Below are positions 16,503 to 22,153 of a DNA stretch of 64,000 bases, piece after piece (position 1 is the first letter of the stretch; each line of letters starts with the position of its first letter). Origin of the DNA: Flavobacteriales bacterium. Lineage in GTDB: Bacteria; Bacteroidota; Bacteroidia; Flavobacteriales_C; GCA-002722245. The stretch covers positions 48,226 through 112,225 of the forward strand of contig JAHEZL010000004.1 in assembly GCA_023251095.1 (NCBI GenBank), in the 5' to 3' direction. The notes beneath the pieces are model-generated. The model was given only the letters and a program-made list of their open reading frames with translations, made no database searches and was not told the DNA's origin. A program made the translations under genes and the position numbers.

Positions 16503-16722
16503 ATATATATATGTATTAAAAATGAGCTCGGTAAAAGTAAACAAAACTGGTGCCACTATAAAAACAATTAGCGAAGTTAAAACGTTACCGGCTTTTTCGC
16601 AATTAACAAGTCTTTAACACAGCGACGACCGCTTTTTTATTTTTTGGTGTTTTCTTCTTTCTGTAATATAAAAGAGCTAAATTTAAAACACGGTTCTTTG
16701 ACCATAAGATATTTAAGAGTGT

Positions 16723-16904
16723 CCACACAGACGTGCTCGAGAAACTTACATTTAATTCATTTGGAGTAGTGCTCATGCGAGCACAGGGCGTGCCTGACTT
16801 GCCTGCCTCTGGTAGGCTGGTTTCAGGATTACCGAATTTCGCGGCATCTTCATTCGTACCTTTAAAAGTTTCTTCAAGTTAGTTCTGTGTGGATTTTTTG
16901 TTTT
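16723..16904 (+). ncRNA. candidate structured ncRNA (about 180 nt), unassigned family
   Basis: 5' CCACACAG (16723-16730) pairs with 3' CTGTGTGG (16885-16892), followed by ATTTTTTGTTTT. Internal GC-rich hairpins (GTGCTCatgcGAGCAC; GGCGTGCC) sit inside an AT-rich 460-bp intergenic region. Confidence 0.25.
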
Positions 16905-16945
16905 AAAACACCCATACATATATATAGGTATAAAAAAAGGGTGTA

Positions 16946-16961
16946 AATCAACCATTTAGAC
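16946..16961. promoter_or_regulatory. putative MntR/DtxR operator (perfect palindrome TTTAGACTAGTCTAAA)
   Basis: 16-bp perfect palindrome resembling the DtxR box half-site TTAGG...CCTAA, located 64 bp upstream of the regulator-gene ATG. Confidence 0.55.
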
Positions 16962-17024
16962 TAGTCTAAACATTTCTTTGAATTAATCTAATATATTGTT
17001 ATTTTTGATGGAAACTGGCATATT

Positions 17025-17696
17025 ATGAATTCATCAACAGAAGAAGATTATTTAAAGGCTATTTATAAATTAAGTCCGAAATTCCCTGACGGAGTGCTCA
17101 CTTCAGCGATTGCTGAGGTGTTGGAAACCAAAGCATCATCGGTTACCGATATGCTTAAAAAGCTTTCTGAAAAAGGCTATATCAATTATGTGAAATACCA
17201 AGGGGTTACTTTGCAGCCTATCGGTGAAGAAGTTGCTATCCGCGTTATCCGTAAACACCGCCTGTGGGAGGTGTTCCTGGCGGAAAAGCTGGATTTTACG
17301 TGGGATGAAATTCATGAAATTGCCGAGCAGCTGGAGCACATCGTGTCGGTGAACCTAATCGACAGATTGGATAAATATTTAGGCTTCCCTAAGTTTGATC
17401 CGCATGGTGACCCTATTCCCGATAAAAACGGAAAATTCCAAAAGATAAAAGATGTGGCTTTGAGAGATTTAAATGTTGGCGACATCGCTATTTTAGTAGG
17501 TGTTCGTGAACACTCCAAAGAATTTTTACAATACCTGGAGAACATAAAATTGTTATTGGGATCGAAGATAGAAGTGATCAATAAGTTTGCTTTTGATGAA
17601 TCCGTATTGGTGCGAATCAATGGCAAAAGCGAAATTATGTTGTCGAGTTTACTGTGCAAAAACATAAGTGTCACTCATGAAAAACCTAAGAAATAG
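17025..17696 (+). CDS. DtxR/MntR-family metal-dependent transcriptional regulator with C-terminal FeoA/SH3-like domain
   Basis: N-terminal wHTH (YLKAIYKL...SAIAEVLETKASSVTDMLKKL), dimerisation/metal-binding helix (RKHRLWEVFL...DEIHEIAEQLEH) and a C-terminal SH3-like segment. Confidence 0.9.
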   Translation: MNSSTEEDYLKAIYKLSPKFPDGVLTSAIAEVLETKASSVTDMLKKLSEKGYINYVKYQGVTLQPIGEEVAIRVIRKHRLWEVFLAEKLDFTWDEIHEIAEQLEHIVSVNLIDRLDKYLGFPKFDPHGDPIPDKNGKFQKIKDVALRDLNVGDIAILVGVREHSKEFLQYLENIKLLLGSKIEVINKFAFDESVLVRINGKSEIMLSSLLCKNISVTHEKPKK

Positions 17697-18594
17697 CATA
17701 CTCCTCGGAGTTTTGGCTTTTCTTTTTTCATGTGGAGAGAACGGAAAGCAACACTCTTCAAAAATCTATATTGTCACCACCACCGGCATGATTGCCGATG
17801 CGGTGAAAAACATTGCCGATACTTTGCTTGAAGTGGAAGCTTTGATGGGACCCGGTGTTGATCCTCATTTGTATAAAGCCAAGCAAAGCGATACCAAAAA
17901 ATTACTGGAAGCCGATGTGGTGTTTTACAACGGTGTTCATTTGGAAGGCAAGATGGCAGAATCATTGGAGAGTCTGGCCAAAACAAAAGCTGTATACGCA
18001 GTAGCCGATGGCATTCCGGAAAGCAAATTGATCAGTACTTCCCAATTTTCGGGGACGCATGATCCACATATCTGGTTTGATGTGAATTTATGGATGGATG
18101 TAGCAAAATACATCAGCCATCAACTACAGAAAAAATATCCTGAACATCAGGAGCACTTCAAAAAAAATACGGAGGAATATCTTAAAAAACTGGAAGAGTT
18201 CAATGTATGGGTAACAGAAGAAATTAAAAAAGTTCCTGATTCCGTTAGGATATTGGTTACTGCCCACGATGCTTTCGGGTATTTTGGTAGAGCCTATGGA
18301 ATGAAGGTAGAAGGGTTGCAAGGAATATCAACGGTTTCTGAGCCGGGCTTAAAAGACATTACCGCGTTGGTGGAGCACATTTCGCAATTAAAAGTGAAAT
18401 CAATATTTATGGAGTCCTCCGTTTCGGCACGTTTTATTAATGCAGTAGTAGAAGGCTGTAAAGAAAAAGGGCACGATTTGAAATTAGGAGGCACTTTATA
18501 TTCTGATGCGATGGGTGCGGCAGGCACTGAAGACGGAACTTATTTAGGAATGATTCGCCACAACGTGAACACCATCGTTGGCGGTTTAAAATAA
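17668..18594 (+). CDS. metal (Mn/Zn) ABC transporter substrate-binding lipoprotein (TroA/ZnuA/MntC family)
   Basis: Lipobox LAFLFSCG, HDAFGYFGRAYG motif and His/Asp metal-ligand positions. The start may be the ATG at 17677. Confidence 0.9.
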   Translation: MSLMKNLRNSILLGVLAFLFSCGENGKQHSSKIYIVTTTGMIADAVKNIADTLLEVEALMGPGVDPHLYKAKQSDTKKLLEADVVFYNGVHLEGKMAESLESLAKTKAVYAVADGIPESKLISTSQFSGTHDPHIWFDVNLWMDVAKYISHQLQKKYPEHQEHFKKNTEEYLKKLEEFNVWVTEEIKKVPDSVRILVTAHDAFGYFGRAYGMKVEGLQGISTVSEPGLKDITALVEHISQLKVKSIFMESSVSARFINAVVEGCKEKGHDLKLGGTLYSDAMGAAGTEDGTYLGMIRHNVNTIVGGLK

Positions 18595-18600
18595 AGGCTT

Positions 18601-19389
18601 ATGATCATCCACGCAGAAAATCCAATTATAGAAGTGCACGATTTAACGGTGAGTTACAACAACAAACCGGTGTTGTGGAATGTTGATTTTACGCTGCCCG
18701 CCGGACAAATGATTGGCATCATCGGTCCCAACGGAGCTGGGAAATCCACCTTGCTTAAATCGCTCATGAATTTAATTCCCAATAACAGCGGCTATATTAA
18801 ATTGTTCAACGACGATTTAAATAAAGTGCGCCATAAAATTTCTTACGTTCCGCAACGCGAATCGGTGGATTGGGATTTTCCGGCAAGTGTAATGGACATT
18901 GCATTGATGGGAAGATACAAGCCGGGAAATATTTTTAAAAGATTTACTTCTGAAGACAAAGATATTGCAGCCGATTGTTTGAAGCGTGTGAAGATGCTGG
19001 ATTATGCCAAGCGACAAATTTCACAATTGTCGGGAGGGCAACAACAACGCGCTTTTTTGGCGCGTGCTTTGGCGCAGCAAGCCGATTTGTATTTAATGGA
19101 TGAACCTTTCGCAGGCGTAGATGCCTCAACAGAAAAATCCATTATTGAATTGTTTCTTTCCATGAAAGAAGAAGGAAAAACCATTTTGGTGGTACACCAC
19201 GATTTACAATCTGCAGCCGATTATTTCAATTGGATACTTTTAATTAATACCCGTTTGGTGGCCTCCGGACCAACGAGTAAAATTTTCACTCCCGAAATGT
19301 TGCGTGAAACATACGGCGGTAAACTCACCGTGTTAACGAAAGTAGGGGAGATCATAGCCGAAACTCAGTTCCCAATTCGCGAACAATAA
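18601..19389 (+). CDS. metal ABC transporter ATP-binding protein
   Basis: Walker A GPNGAGKST, signature LSGGQQQRAFLARAL, Walker B LYLMDEP. Confidence 0.92.
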   Translation: MIIHAENPIIEVHDLTVSYNNKPVLWNVDFTLPAGQMIGIIGPNGAGKSTLLKSLMNLIPNNSGYIKLFNDDLNKVRHKISYVPQRESVDWDFPASVMDIALMGRYKPGNIFKRFTSEDKDIAADCLKRVKMLDYAKRQISQLSGGQQQRAFLARALAQQADLYLMDEPFAGVDASTEKSIIELFLSMKEEGKTILVVHHDLQSAADYFNWILLINTRLVASGPTSKIFTPEMLRETYGGKLTVLTKVGEIIAETQFPIREQ

Positions 19390-20690
19390 TGATAGCTTTT
19401 GAAAATATCATTGATTTTCTTTCTCTGAAAGAAGCCAACGTTCGCTACGTGGTGCTCGGTACTATATTATTAAGTATCGCTTCTTCGGTGATTGGTTGTT
19501 TTGCTTTGTTGCGCAAACGTGCGCTGATTGTAGATTCTATTTCGCATTCTATTTTACCCGGCGTGTGTATGGGCTTTATGATTTCGGGCACCAAAGATCC
19601 TTTGTTTTTATTAGGAGGAGCAATGCTCACAGGATGGCTGTCGATTTACTTTATTGATATCATTACTCGCTATTCAAAAATAAAAGCCGATACTGCAATC
19701 GGTTTAAATCTCTCGGTATTTTTTGCTGTGGGAATTTTGTTGCTCACCATTATTCAGAATTCAGGAAATCCTAATCAATCGGGTTTATCCGATTTTCTTT
19801 TTGGAAAAGCAGCAACGATGGTGGAGTCGGATTTGTATACTTTCGGAGGAATGGCCTTGCTGGTTATTTCAGGAGTGGTGCTGTTTTACAAGCAATTTGT
19901 GTTGGTTTCCTTTGATATGAATTTTGCGAAAACAATAGGATTGAATATTAAATTCTACGAATTCATTTTATCGATATTGACTGTAATGGCTGTAGCTATT
20001 GGTATACAAACAGTAGGAGTGGTGTTGATGGCGGCGATGCTAATTACACCTGCGGCAACAGCGCGTTACTGGACAGATAATTTAAATAAAATGCTGGTCA
20101 TCGCTGCGCTCATCGGTGCCTTGTCGGGAATAGCCGGAGCCTTTGTTTCCTACTCTTATGAAAACATGCCAACCGGACCGTGGATCGTTATTGTGTTTTC
20201 GGTGATTGCCATGTTGTCGATGGTGTTTGCACCTAAAAAAGGAATTGTTTCAAAGTGGTTGCGACAAAAACGCAATTCGCACAAAATGATGGAAGACAAT
20301 ATCCTCAAAGCCTTTTATCGTTTGGGTGAAAAAGAAGGAGATTTTTATAAAAAACGAACAGTGGAAGATTTGATGAATCTGCGCAAATTCGAAAGAAATA
20401 AATTGCTCACAGGTTTGAAATGGCTGAGTGCAGAAAATACTATCGTGCACATCAATAACACTTATGTACTTTCCAAAAAAGGAAAAGCGATAGGAGAGCG
20501 GATAGTGAAAATTCATCGTTTGTGGGAGTTGTATCTCAAAATTTATTTGCGAGTTGCCGATGATCATGTGCACGATGATGCCGAAACGATTGAGCACATT
20601 ATCACACCGGAATTGGAGTTGCTATTGGAGAAACAATTGGATTATCCGACGGAGGATCCGCATCATCAAAAAATTCCTTATTCAAAATAA
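19389..20690 (+). CDS. metal ABC transporter permease (ABC-3 family) fused to a C-terminal DtxR-like domain
   Basis: About 280 aa of ABC-3 permease, then a ~150-aa tail (…KIHRLWELYLKIYL…DDAETIEHIITPELE…YPTEDPHHQKIP) that aligns with the regulator 17025..17696 (RKHRLWEVFLAEKL…IHEIAEQLEHIVSV…FPKFDPHGDPIP). Confidence 0.85.
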   Translation: MIAFENIIDFLSLKEANVRYVVLGTILLSIASSVIGCFALLRKRALIVDSISHSILPGVCMGFMISGTKDPLFLLGGAMLTGWLSIYFIDIITRYSKIKADTAIGLNLSVFFAVGILLLTIIQNSGNPNQSGLSDFLFGKAATMVESDLYTFGGMALLVISGVVLFYKQFVLVSFDMNFAKTIGLNIKFYEFILSILTVMAVAIGIQTVGVVLMAAMLITPAATARYWTDNLNKMLVIAALIGALSGIAGAFVSYSYENMPTGPWIVIVFSVIAMLSMVFAPKKGIVSKWLRQKRNSHKMMEDNILKAFYRLGEKEGDFYKKRTVEDLMNLRKFERNKLLTGLKWLSAENTIVHINNTYVLSKKGKAIGERIVKIHRLWELYLKIYLRVADDHVHDDAETIEHIITPELELLLEKQLDYPTEDPHHQKIPYSK

Positions 20691-20691
20691 T

Positions 20692-21570
20692 ATGGATTTT
20701 AAATTTGAATTAATCATAATTATCACCGCCTGTCTGGTTGCTGTTAGCAGTAGTATCATCGGTTGTTTTTTGATTCTGCGAAAAATGGCGATGGTGGGTG
20801 ATGCCATTTCACATTCGGTGTTGCCGGGTATTGTGATTGCTTTTATGCTGGGTGGTAAATTAGGTTCGTGGTATTTGTTGGTAGGTGCTGCAGTGTTTGG
20901 AATCATCACTACTTTTTTGATAGAATTTTTTAATAAAAAAGGAGGGATGCAGCACGATGCAACCATTGGTGTGGTGTTTACATCGCTCTTTGCTTTCGGA
21001 ATTATTTTGGTGACGGTGTATGCGCGCGATGTGGATATTGATCAGGATTGCGTGTTGTATGGAGAGTTGGATCATGTGGCTTTTGAGGAAGGGATAACCA
21101 TGTTCGGACAAATTATTCCTTACACGATCGTTCGTTTGTCGGTAATGTTACTGTGCATTATTACCATGGTAGTGATGGGTTACCGCGGATTATTTCTTAC
21201 CACTTTCGATCCGGCTTATGCTGCAACAATAGGTATTTCAGTGATGGCCTGGCATTATGTGCTAATGGCATCGGTGTCGCTTTCCACCGTACTTTCCTTT
21301 GGATCGGTGGGCGCAATTTTAGTGGTTGCGTTTTTAATCACTCCACCTGCCACAGCGTATTTGCTCACCGATAAATTAAAGCAAATGATTTTTCTTTCTG
21401 TTGGATTTGGAATTACAGGATCTGTTATCGGTTATTATTTCGCAACAGCGATTGATGGTGCTACTTCAGCAGCGATAGCAAGTGTGCTGGGAATGCAGTT
21501 TATTTTGGTGTTTGTAGGGAAGATGGTGGAGAAGAAGTATTTTAATAAAGTAGCGGTCACAGGGGAGTAA
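20692..21570 (+). CDS. metal ABC transporter permease (ABC-3 family), second subunit
   Basis: Paralogous to the N-terminal part of 19389..20690 (…SSIIGCFLILRKMAMVGDAISHSVLPG…). The ATG at 20692 directly follows the stop of the upstream gene; the ORF-track start is extended. Confidence 0.85.
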   Translation: MDFKFELIIIITACLVAVSSSIIGCFLILRKMAMVGDAISHSVLPGIVIAFMLGGKLGSWYLLVGAAVFGIITTFLIEFFNKKGGMQHDATIGVVFTSLFAFGIILVTVYARDVDIDQDCVLYGELDHVAFEEGITMFGQIIPYTIVRLSVMLLCIITMVVMGYRGLFLTTFDPAYAATIGISVMAWHYVLMASVSLSTVLSFGSVGAILVVAFLITPPATAYLLTDKLKQMIFLSVGFGITGSVIGYYFATAIDGATSAAIASVLGMQFILVFVGKMVEKKYFNKVAVTGE

Positions 21571-21787: not shown

Positions 21788-22153
21788 GTGAAAATCCATT
21801 ATAAAAACTACTTGAATCGCTATGCGAAGAATTTGAGGAATGTCTCTACTTATTCCGAAATATTATTGTGGAATGAATTAAAACAAAAACAAATTTTGAA
21901 TATGCAATTCAATCGTCAAAGACCAATTGGTAATTATATAGCGGATTTCTATTGCGCTAAAGCAAAGCTGATTATTGAATTAGATGGAATTACTCATCAT
22001 AGCGAGGAGCAGTATAGTTTGGATGTGCTGAGGCAAGCGGAATTAGAAAATATGGGGTATAAAGTTTTAAGATTTTCGGATGAAGAAGTGATGAAGGATA
22101 GACAAAATGTGTTGAGGACAATTGAGATAGAGTTAGAAAAACGATTCGGGTAA
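21788..22153 (+). CDS. DUF559 (Vsr-like endonuclease fold) domain protein
   Basis: …AKNLRNVSTYSEILLWNELKQKQ…FNRQRPIGNYIADFYCAKAKLIIELDG…H…E… matches the DUF559 pattern. GTG start; AT-rich relative to neighbouring genes. Confidence 0.75.
   Translation: MKIHYKNYLNRYAKNLRNVSTYSEILLWNELKQKQILNMQFNRQRPIGNYIADFYCAKAKLIIELDGITHHSEEQYSLDVLRQAELENMGYKVLRFSDEEVMKDRQNVLRTIEIELEKRFG

Follow-up and report, generated by a model that had tools for sequence, protein, structure and literature searches.

A DtxR-like module on an ABC-3 permease, encoded beside a free DtxR-family regulator in a Flavobacteriales bacterium

In Chlamydia, the YtgC-YtgR architecture joins a permease and a repressor in one protein, and Akers 2011 is said to be its source. 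The protein, YtgC (CT069/CTL0325), begins with a TroC-like permease and ends with a TroR/DtxR-like part, YtgR, in which the DtxR ligands are conserved, and it is encoded in ytgABCD (PMC5599777). YtgR is cleaved from YtgC during infection to give a 28-30 kDa product, and it is responsible for iron-dependent repression of the ytg promoter and of trpBA (PMC5599777 and later Chlamydia papers). Orthologous permease-repressor fusions occur in 11 bacterial phyla (Thompson et al. 2012, as stated in a review, PMC5599777). Here we analyze a protein that is almost certainly of this type, encoded in 64,000 nucleotides of DNA from a Flavobacteriales bacterium (contig JAHEZL010000004.1; this whole stretch is called the window). 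The open reading frame (19389..20690, + strand) encodes 433 amino acids, an ABC-3 permease followed by a DtxR-like tail, and lies fourth in a run of five genes that begins with one for a free DtxR-family regulator of 223 amino acids (17025..17696, + strand). A previous reading of this DNA, referred to as the original prediction, was correct in every factual respect, including the coordinates of the open reading frame. The fusion is not a novelty; the architecture had already been described as YtgC-YtgR and reported in 11 phyla (PMC5599777).

The locus resembles that of C. trachomatis in two ways. As in YtgC-YtgR, one polypeptide combines a TroC-like permease and a DtxR-like module in which the metal ligands are conserved, and a TroA-like binding protein, an ATPase, the fused permease, and a second, unfused permease follow in the same order as in ytgABCD. 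The likeness to chlamydial YtgC is one of architecture and gene order, and orthology is taken from the review (PMC5599777). Unlike Chlamydia, which has no other DtxR-type regulator, the window has a three-domain free paralog at the head of the operon. Cleavage and DNA binding have been shown only for chlamydial YtgR. The recognition helix of the tail in the clade of the window protein is fast-evolving and has no match to the winged-helix profile PF01325.

Similarity to Treponema troABCDR lies in the TroA-type binding protein (E=5e-77), the two-permease ABC-3 importer, the DtxR-family Mn/Fe/Zn-responsive repressor, and a dyad located 5′ of the first transporter gene, which the repressor binds in Treponema (a candidate in the window). 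In Treponema, however, TroR is separate and encoded at the end of the operon, and the permeases are unfused; in the window the operon starts with the regulator gene, and the first permease bears a second DtxR-like module. The tail has the same two-domain fold and ligand positions as free DtxR, IdeR, MntR, SloR, ScaR, and DR2539. It differs from the free DtxR/MntR-family repressors in being covalently joined to a permease via helix 1, in lacking the SH3/FeoA domain, in having Asn at the helix-1 ligand position, and in its non-canonical, poorly conserved recognition helix.

A further comparison is with the trans-inhibited importers MetNI (C2 domains) and ModBC (regulatory domains), in which transport is shut off once an appended cytoplasmic domain detects the substrate that has been imported. 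The role that we propose for the tail would be alike, as a functional analogy only, with no homology implied. In MetNI and ModBC the sensor is on the ATPase subunit and has an unrelated fold, whereas in the window it would be on the membrane subunit and have a transcription-factor fold.

The fusion and its relatives

The window protein is, we are nearly certain, a TroC/PsaC-like permease joined to a complete two-domain DtxR/MntR-type module, a YtgC-YtgR-type fusion in a five-gene tro/ytg-like metal-uptake operon. Pfam assigns ABC-3 (PF00950) to residues 18-280 (E=6e-69) and Fe_dep_repr_C (PF02742) to residues 363-430 (E=5e-20, with a score of 71.8 bits where the cutoff is 27). In NCBIfam, permease and MntR/DtxR models are matched only below threshold. 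The original prediction had expected two DtxR-family profiles in the tail. Fe_dep_repr_C was found, and the winged-helix profile PF01325 is matched neither by the window tail (E up to 0.1) nor by any of 87 relatives (E up to 0.01; these are fusions drawn from clusters at 50% identity, the sample in which conservation was also scored). The proposal that the tail starts with a winged helix-turn-helix-like segment is borne out by alignment with SloR and ScaR and by the H1-H2-H3-wing order of an AlphaFold2 model.

The tail was also said to align with the regulator encoded at 17025..17696, and it does. BLASTP with residues 285-433 gives 32% identity over 130 residues (E=7e-17), in an alignment that starts at regulator residue 6 and spans both the winged-helix and the dimerization parts. 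The tail aligns with SloR residues 6-130 (E=5e-11) and with ScaR, MntR, IdeR, and DtxR, and it has the helix-4 motif HRLWE[LV][YF]L in common with the free regulator. A chance or compositional likeness is ruled out by the E value, which is composition-adjusted, together with the PDB and Pfam matches. An SH3-like/FeoA domain is absent from the tail, and the protein stops at residue 433, right after a DPHxxxIP motif. MntR and T. pallidum TroR likewise lack an SH3-like domain (PMC2628430).

We built the AlphaFold2 model on an alignment of 87 diverse fusions. It has a predicted local distance difference test score (pLDDT) of 96.3, a predicted template modeling score (pTM) of 0.90, and no low-confidence segment. 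The permease domain (residues 1-284, 19389..20240, + strand) is of the TroC/YtgC/PsaC type and has nine predicted membrane helices, the last of which (residues 262-280) is followed by a tight turn. Residues 286-316 (20244..20336, + strand) are then modeled as one unbroken helix of about 31 residues, running from the exit of the last membrane helix through to DtxR-like helix 1, so that linker and helix 1 are the same element. Block-mean pLDDT at this junction is at least 96, with no disordered or flexible linker. The helix carries a conserved ENxLK motif that includes the ligand-equivalent N304, and K307 is lysine in 85/87 fusions. Tail elements are in the canonical order, H1-H2-H3-wing-H4-H5-H6. 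The winged-helix part (residues 300-362, 20286..20474, + strand), in which the fold is kept and the sequence is divergent, includes H2 at 325-331, H3 at 336-348, and a beta-hairpin wing at 352-361. The dimerization/metal-binding domain (residues 363-433, 20475..20687, + strand) matches PF02742 and has helices at 363-386, 391-404, and 407-416.

Searched with Foldseek against the PDB, the model splits into a permease part and a tail part. For the N-terminal part the match is PsaC, from the Mn importer of pneumococcus (7kyp; 32% identity, target-normalized template modeling score 0.85-0.89). For the tail it is DR2539, a two-domain Mn repressor, with 134 aligned columns against a 139-residue chain and a root-mean-square deviation (rmsd) of 1.8 A, and also IdeR, DtxR, SloR, and ScaR; across repressors the rmsd is 1.7-2.8 A over about 130 aligned columns. 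No solved structure of the fused architecture was found by Foldseek in the PDB.

All 120 of the best full-length homologs are 427-439 amino acids long and have both PF00950 and PF02742. An identical protein is public, on other contigs, and relatives at 89-90% identity (from Flavobacteriales/Bacteroidota metagenome-assembled genomes) are annotated “metal ABC transporter permease”, a label that under-describes the fusion. A word-indexed homolog search with the tail alone returned 10 fragments only, and an exhaustive HMMER search was used instead. It gave 2157 cluster representatives, of which the best 150 were inspected: 86 are full-length fusions and the rest are mostly truncated fragments. Both domains are present in 87/87 aligned members. 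Named genomes with the fusion belong to the Bacteroidota, Verrucomicrobiota, Planctomycetota, Latescibacterota, Acidobacteriota, Sumerlaeota, Omnitrophota, and Krumholzibacteriia. The fusion itself is already known, as the YtgC-YtgR architecture, and many phyla have the gene normally in this form.

An assembly or frameshift artifact is ruled out by the identical protein on independent contigs and by the same architecture in hundreds of homologs, close and distant. Separate translation of the tail from an internal start codon is ruled out as well; M300/M301 are not conserved in the fusion alignment. Two apparent stand-alone tail genes were checked, of which P0133 (L088) is a homopolymer frameshift and P0170 (L089) a truncated contig. 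At L088 (3112-4408) permease and tail are parted by a frameshift within an A/G homopolymer, and the second permease of this locus is broken as well. The free regulator of L016 (2617-3277) is split into two overlapping open reading frames, an assembly artifact that mimics a split gene. Among the apparent cases checked there are no genuine split permease/tail genes.

Relatives in Paenibacillus and Bacillus have an unfused permease (loci L061, L064, L065, L067, L072, L076, L078, L079, and L087). The permease domain of the window protein is 46-49% identical to these unfused permeases, compared with 34-40% for the fused homologs of Verrucomicrobiota and Planctomycetota. Because the unfused proteins are nearer than the fused ones, the tail may have been gained or lost, or the gene may have passed between phyla, rather than the fusion simply descending vertically. 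Tail-tail identity is 31-52% among the best 150 cluster representatives (40-50% for the closest), and the free regulator of the same operon is 32% identical to the tail. Since the tails are nearer to each other than to that regulator, the fused tails are, judged by these identities, an old clade of their own.

The mildly unusual part is the conserved pairing of the fusion with a free paralogous regulator. This layout recurs in homologs that are only 55-61% identical to the window fusion. About 26 of 42 informative Bacteroidota loci (~60%) have the five-gene layout with a free regulator, and the other ~16 have no free regulator within 5 kb. In loci of Verrucomicrobiota, Acidobacteriota, and Sumerlaeota, a full-length free regulator is likewise missing from the 5 kb around the fusion; in a few loci of Verrucomicrobiota and one of Thermoanaerobaculia (L063, L073, and L074), the only such gene is a short, weaker DtxR-like open reading frame.

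A tail is present on each of the two permeases in 11 loci of Planctomycetota, Latescibacterota, Omnitrophota, and Krumholzibacteriia (L049, L053, L056, L066, L068, L071, L075, L081, L082, L083, and L086, with the permease open reading frames at ~4.6-7.7 kb in each). The two tails of such a double fusion differ, typically scoring ~60-80 bits and ~30-45 bits against a profile of the free-regulator dimer domain. No mention of double fusions was found in the literature searched on such fusions. In three Bacteroidota loci (L007, L013, and L024) the fused permease has no adjoining second ABC-3 permease gene, and the next gene in L007 is a convergent MiaE; this arrangement suggests a homodimeric transporter bearing two tails.

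Metal sites, recognition helix, and candidate operator boxes

Metal sites were defined as in the T. denticola TroR paper (PMC2628430), together with the residue numbering of MntR and ScaR. N304 of the tail falls at the position of DtxR M10 and MntR D8. H376 corresponds to DtxR H79 and MntR H77, E380 to DtxR E83, and H395 to DtxR H98; E399 corresponds to DtxR C102 and MntR E99, E402 to DtxR E105 and MntR E102, and H403 to DtxR H106 and MntR H103. D423 and H425 occupy the positions of ScaR/SloR C123 and H125.

H376, H395, E402, and H403 are invariant in 87/87 fusions. Nearly so are E380 (86/87), E399 (80/87, with D in 6), N304 (79/87, with H in 7), D423 (81/87), and H425 (81/87). The original prediction had weighed whether the fusion is the standard architecture of a family whose tails lack the metal ligands: the fusion is standard (120/120 of the best homologs and 87/87 aligned members), and the ligands have been kept. 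In the free regulators of 24 genomes the ligand set is exactly that of the tail. Their helix-1 ligand position (residue 8) is N in 22/24, and the window copy has D (codon 8, window 17046-17048). Asn at the position of DtxR Met10 and MntR Asp8 appears to be typical of the whole subfamily. Because the ligand positions are conserved and are the same in tails and free regulators, there is clear purifying selection, as judged from the alignments, on metal binding by the tail, and tail and free regulator should sense the same metal. We infer that metal brought in by the transporter is bound by the tail on the cytoplasmic side, with negative feedback as the result.

Constraint is uneven along the tail. 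We compared mean pairwise identity of tail and free regulator in the same 24 genomes. In the dimer domain the values are close (0.61 for the tail and 0.67 for the free regulator); in the winged helix they are 0.28 and 0.51. In the recognition helix, which evolves about twice as fast in the tail, they are 0.26 and 0.55. Against a free-regulator winged-helix profile, the tails reach no more than 7-9 bits. Median scores are 8.6 bits for tails without an adjacent free regulator and 7.2 bits for those with one, a weak trend, and the few tails that reach 16-22 bits are all from loci without an adjacent free regulator. In helix 3 of the tails only buried leucines are kept, and identity is 0.22-0.30 in Verrucomicrobiota and in Bacteroidota with or without a free regulator.

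A perfect 16-bp palindrome, TTTAGACTAGTCTAAA (16955..16970), lies ~55 bp 5′ of the regulator ATG and is a candidate DtxR-family operator; it occurs once in the window. Related loci have a TTTAGA-N4-TCTAAA / TTAG-N6-CTAA box 40-70 bp 5′ of the regulator gene or just 5′ of the binding-protein gene. The TTAG-N6-CTAA box is found at the operon 5′ edge in 39/65 loci, and 44 of the 56 boxes in the 65 loci sit in a 1.5-kb zone at that edge that makes up 14% of the sequence (p=2e-27). Boxes are present also in Verrucomicrobiota loci and in loci without an adjacent free regulator. Paired TTAG-N6-CTAA boxes, 75-100 bp apart and 5′ of the regulator, occur in L015 (2065, 2163), L030 (2513, 2589), and L038 (2397, 2473).

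Helix 3 of the tail neither covaries with the conserved DtxR-type box nor stays conserved. Its divergence holds even among Verrucomicrobiota tails with near-identical boxes (L077 and L080, AATTAGCC..GGCTAATT; L085, TCTTAGCC..GGCTAAGA). Because helix 3 is unconserved where operons share near-identical boxes, the Verrucomicrobiota tails do not look like readers of the TTAG-N6-CTAA box.

Role of the fused module

The find matters little in itself, the architecture being known, detectable with Pfam, and widespread. The key question is what a fused module does beside a canonical free paralog. The YtgCR mechanism has been studied only in Chlamydia, which is hard to manipulate; the role of the fused module would be more easily approached in free-living Bacteroidota that have both the fusion and a canonical free regulator.

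We tentatively propose that, in this Bacteroidota lineage, the tail remains part of the transporter and throttles import as a metal sensor in the cytoplasm, and that the free regulator does the transcriptional control. Post-translational gating of transport by the tail was one of two mechanisms suggested in the original prediction. Rising Mn2+, Fe2+, or Zn2+ would bind between helix 1 (N304) and the dimerization helices (E399, E402, and H403) and would also fill the H376/E380/H395 site, as in free DtxR-family proteins. In that family, metal binding fixes helix 1 against the dimerization domain. Metal-driven ordering or dimerization of the tail would be passed to the permease and slow import, a feedback like trans-inhibition; the signal could reach the permease because helix 1 is continuous with the helix leaving the last membrane helix. 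The free regulator, with its conserved recognition helix, would act at the conserved TTTAGA-N4-TCTAAA operator and account for most of the transcriptional repression.

The comparative data lean towards this attached-sensor role. The dimer domain of the tail is about as conserved as that of the free regulator in the 24 genomes and the recognition helix is not; none of the 87 tails matches PF01325, and the scores against the free-regulator winged-helix profile are low. In the model, the lack of a flexible linker and the pTM of 0.90 amount to a defined geometry of tail to permease. Double fusions would put two sensor domains on one transporter. The hints of gating in place are the conserved metal site, the lack of constraint on the recognition helix, the rigid junction, and the double fusions. 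Outside the Chlamydiae, the module could, though we hold this with some reserve, be a permanent allosteric sensor, a transcription-factor fold reused for trans-inhibition that dimerizes with a second tail or, where it is single, as in the window, with the free regulator. If so, transporter gating and operon repression would be coupled to one metal-binding chemistry. Gating in place would be a new mode of regulation for an ABC importer and would make the chlamydial model worth a second look.

Several observations weigh against an attached sensor. The winged-helix fold is fully kept and helix 3 is often rich in basic residues. DNA-bound DR2539 (8pw0) superposes on the modeled tail at an rmsd of 1.7 A, so the modeled tail is compatible with DNA binding. 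DtxR-type boxes are also present 5′ of fused operons where a free regulator is missing from the surrounding 5 kb; such boxes fit autoregulation by the tail, and a regulator encoded elsewhere in the genome is also possible. Only one of the two permeases in the window has a tail, which leaves the dimer partner ambiguous, and the high pTM may be due merely to the rigid helix. The only experiments on this architecture, those in Chlamydia, show the tail to be cleaved off as a metal-dependent DNA-binding repressor (PMC5599777).

Cleavage that releases a DNA-binding repressor is the experimentally supported mechanism for the architecture (PMC5599777), and it was absent from the original prediction. 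For the window protein we consider such a release rather unlikely. The tail would be cut off, possibly within the membrane domain to judge from the 28-30 kDa chlamydial fragment, would dimerize with metal, and would repress the operon at the TTAG-N6-CTAA box, being either redundant with the free regulator or directed at other targets. The chlamydial precedent has the same architecture and gene order, the winged-helix fold and all ligands are retained, boxes lie 5′ of fused operons without an adjacent free regulator, and it is from loci of that kind that the tails scoring 16-22 bits on the winged-helix profile come. The recognition helix, however, is unconserved even among tails with the same operon box, PF01325 is matched by 0/87 tails, and the model is without a flexible linker. 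A canonical free regulator with a conserved recognition helix is present in the same operon, here and in ~60% of Bacteroidota loci. Both of the apparent stand-alone tails that were checked have another explanation, a frameshift in one case and a truncated contig in the other.

It is doubtful, as the second mechanism of the original prediction would have it, that the single tail instead pairs with a free-regulator monomer via the dimerization domain, tethering or sequestering it at the membrane and making repression depend on transporter abundance or state in the style of MalK-MalT or PtsG-Mlc. The shared HRLWE[LV][YF]L helix-4 motif, the identical ligand sets, the one tail per presumed heterodimeric transporter in the window, and the occurrence of fusion and free regulator in one operon in many Bacteroidota are all consistent with such pairing. 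Tails are, however, equally conserved in the ~40% of Bacteroidota loci, and in the Verrucomicrobiota, Acidobacteriota, and Sumerlaeota loci, that have no full-length free regulator within 5 kb, and the double-fused systems suggest tail-tail pairing. Very improbable is DNA binding by the intact fusion at the membrane without cleavage, as in ToxR or CadC: full-length YtgC repressed a reporter in E. coli, with this possibility raised in the review (PMC5599777), and a rigid ~31-residue helix could hold the module away from the membrane, but recognition-helix divergence argues against it as it does against a released repressor, and with a single tail per transporter two transporters would be needed on one palindrome.

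Operon genes and flanking sequence

The five genes of the window locus are co-directional and tightly packed, in the order regulator, TroA-like binding protein, ATPase, fused permease, and second permease. Stop and start codons overlap or abut, so the five genes are most likely one operon, which agrees with the claim that the tail is encoded in the same operon as a paralogous free DtxR-type regulator. The genome region encodes a full ABC-3 / cluster A-I importer set, with the ABC-3 permease fold, a ZnuA-family binding protein, and an ABC ATPase all present. The free regulator (17025..17696) has a winged helix (PF01325, Fe_dep_repress), a dimerization/metal domain (PF02742, Fe_dep_repr_C), and an SH3-like FeoA domain (PF04023), and is publicly annotated “DtxR family Mn-dependent transcriptional regulator”.

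The second gene (17668..18594, + strand; the gene call in the identical locus L001 begins at ~17677) encodes a TroA-type substrate-binding lipoprotein with a Pfam ZnuA match. Its best solved relative is T. pallidum TroA (E=5e-77), with which it has DPH, DPH, AHDAFGYF, and SDAMG motifs in common; these presumably hold the TroA three-His-plus-Asp ligand set. The TroA family handles Mn, Fe, and Zn. The ABC ATPase subunit follows at 18601..19389 (+ strand, Pfam ABC_tran), ending in a stop codon that overlaps the fused-permease start. The second permease is unfused, TroD/YtgD-like, and 292 amino acids long (20692..21570, + strand, Pfam ABC-3 E=9e-49; the gene call is from the identical locus L001). 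Directly 3′ of the operon is a small open reading frame for a DUF559 / MTES_1575 (endonuclease-like) protein (21788-22153, + strand), also found in the identical loci L001 and L002.

Directly 3′ of the palindrome there is a putative promoter of the Bacteroidota type (16977..17007, + strand), with a -33 TTTG at 16977-16980 and a -7 TAttTTTG at 17000-17007. The Bacteroidetes promoter consensus is TTTG / TAnnTTTG. In a sigma-70 promoter scan, which is ill-suited to Bacteroidota promoters, promoter-like sites were no commoner than in shuffles. A terminator scan gave 12 terminator-like matches against a shuffle mean of 4.9, short weak stems inside coding sequences. No Rfam match at the gathering threshold, and hence no riboswitch or other known RNA for the operon, was found in the whole window.

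The ~520-bp intergenic region between a divergent thioredoxin-like gene and the regulator contains a candidate 6S-like RNA (16721-16900, + strand). It aligns with the full length (1-179 of 179) of the Rfam model RF01693, Bacteroidales-1, a suggested 6S RNA, with a sub-threshold score (24.6 bits against a gathering threshold of 60, E=0.047). The predicted fold of 16715-16905 is a long rod, closed by a stem and interrupted in the middle by a large internal loop (z=-4.6 at -66.1 kcal/mol, with 0/200 shuffles as good), and a U-run follows the fold.

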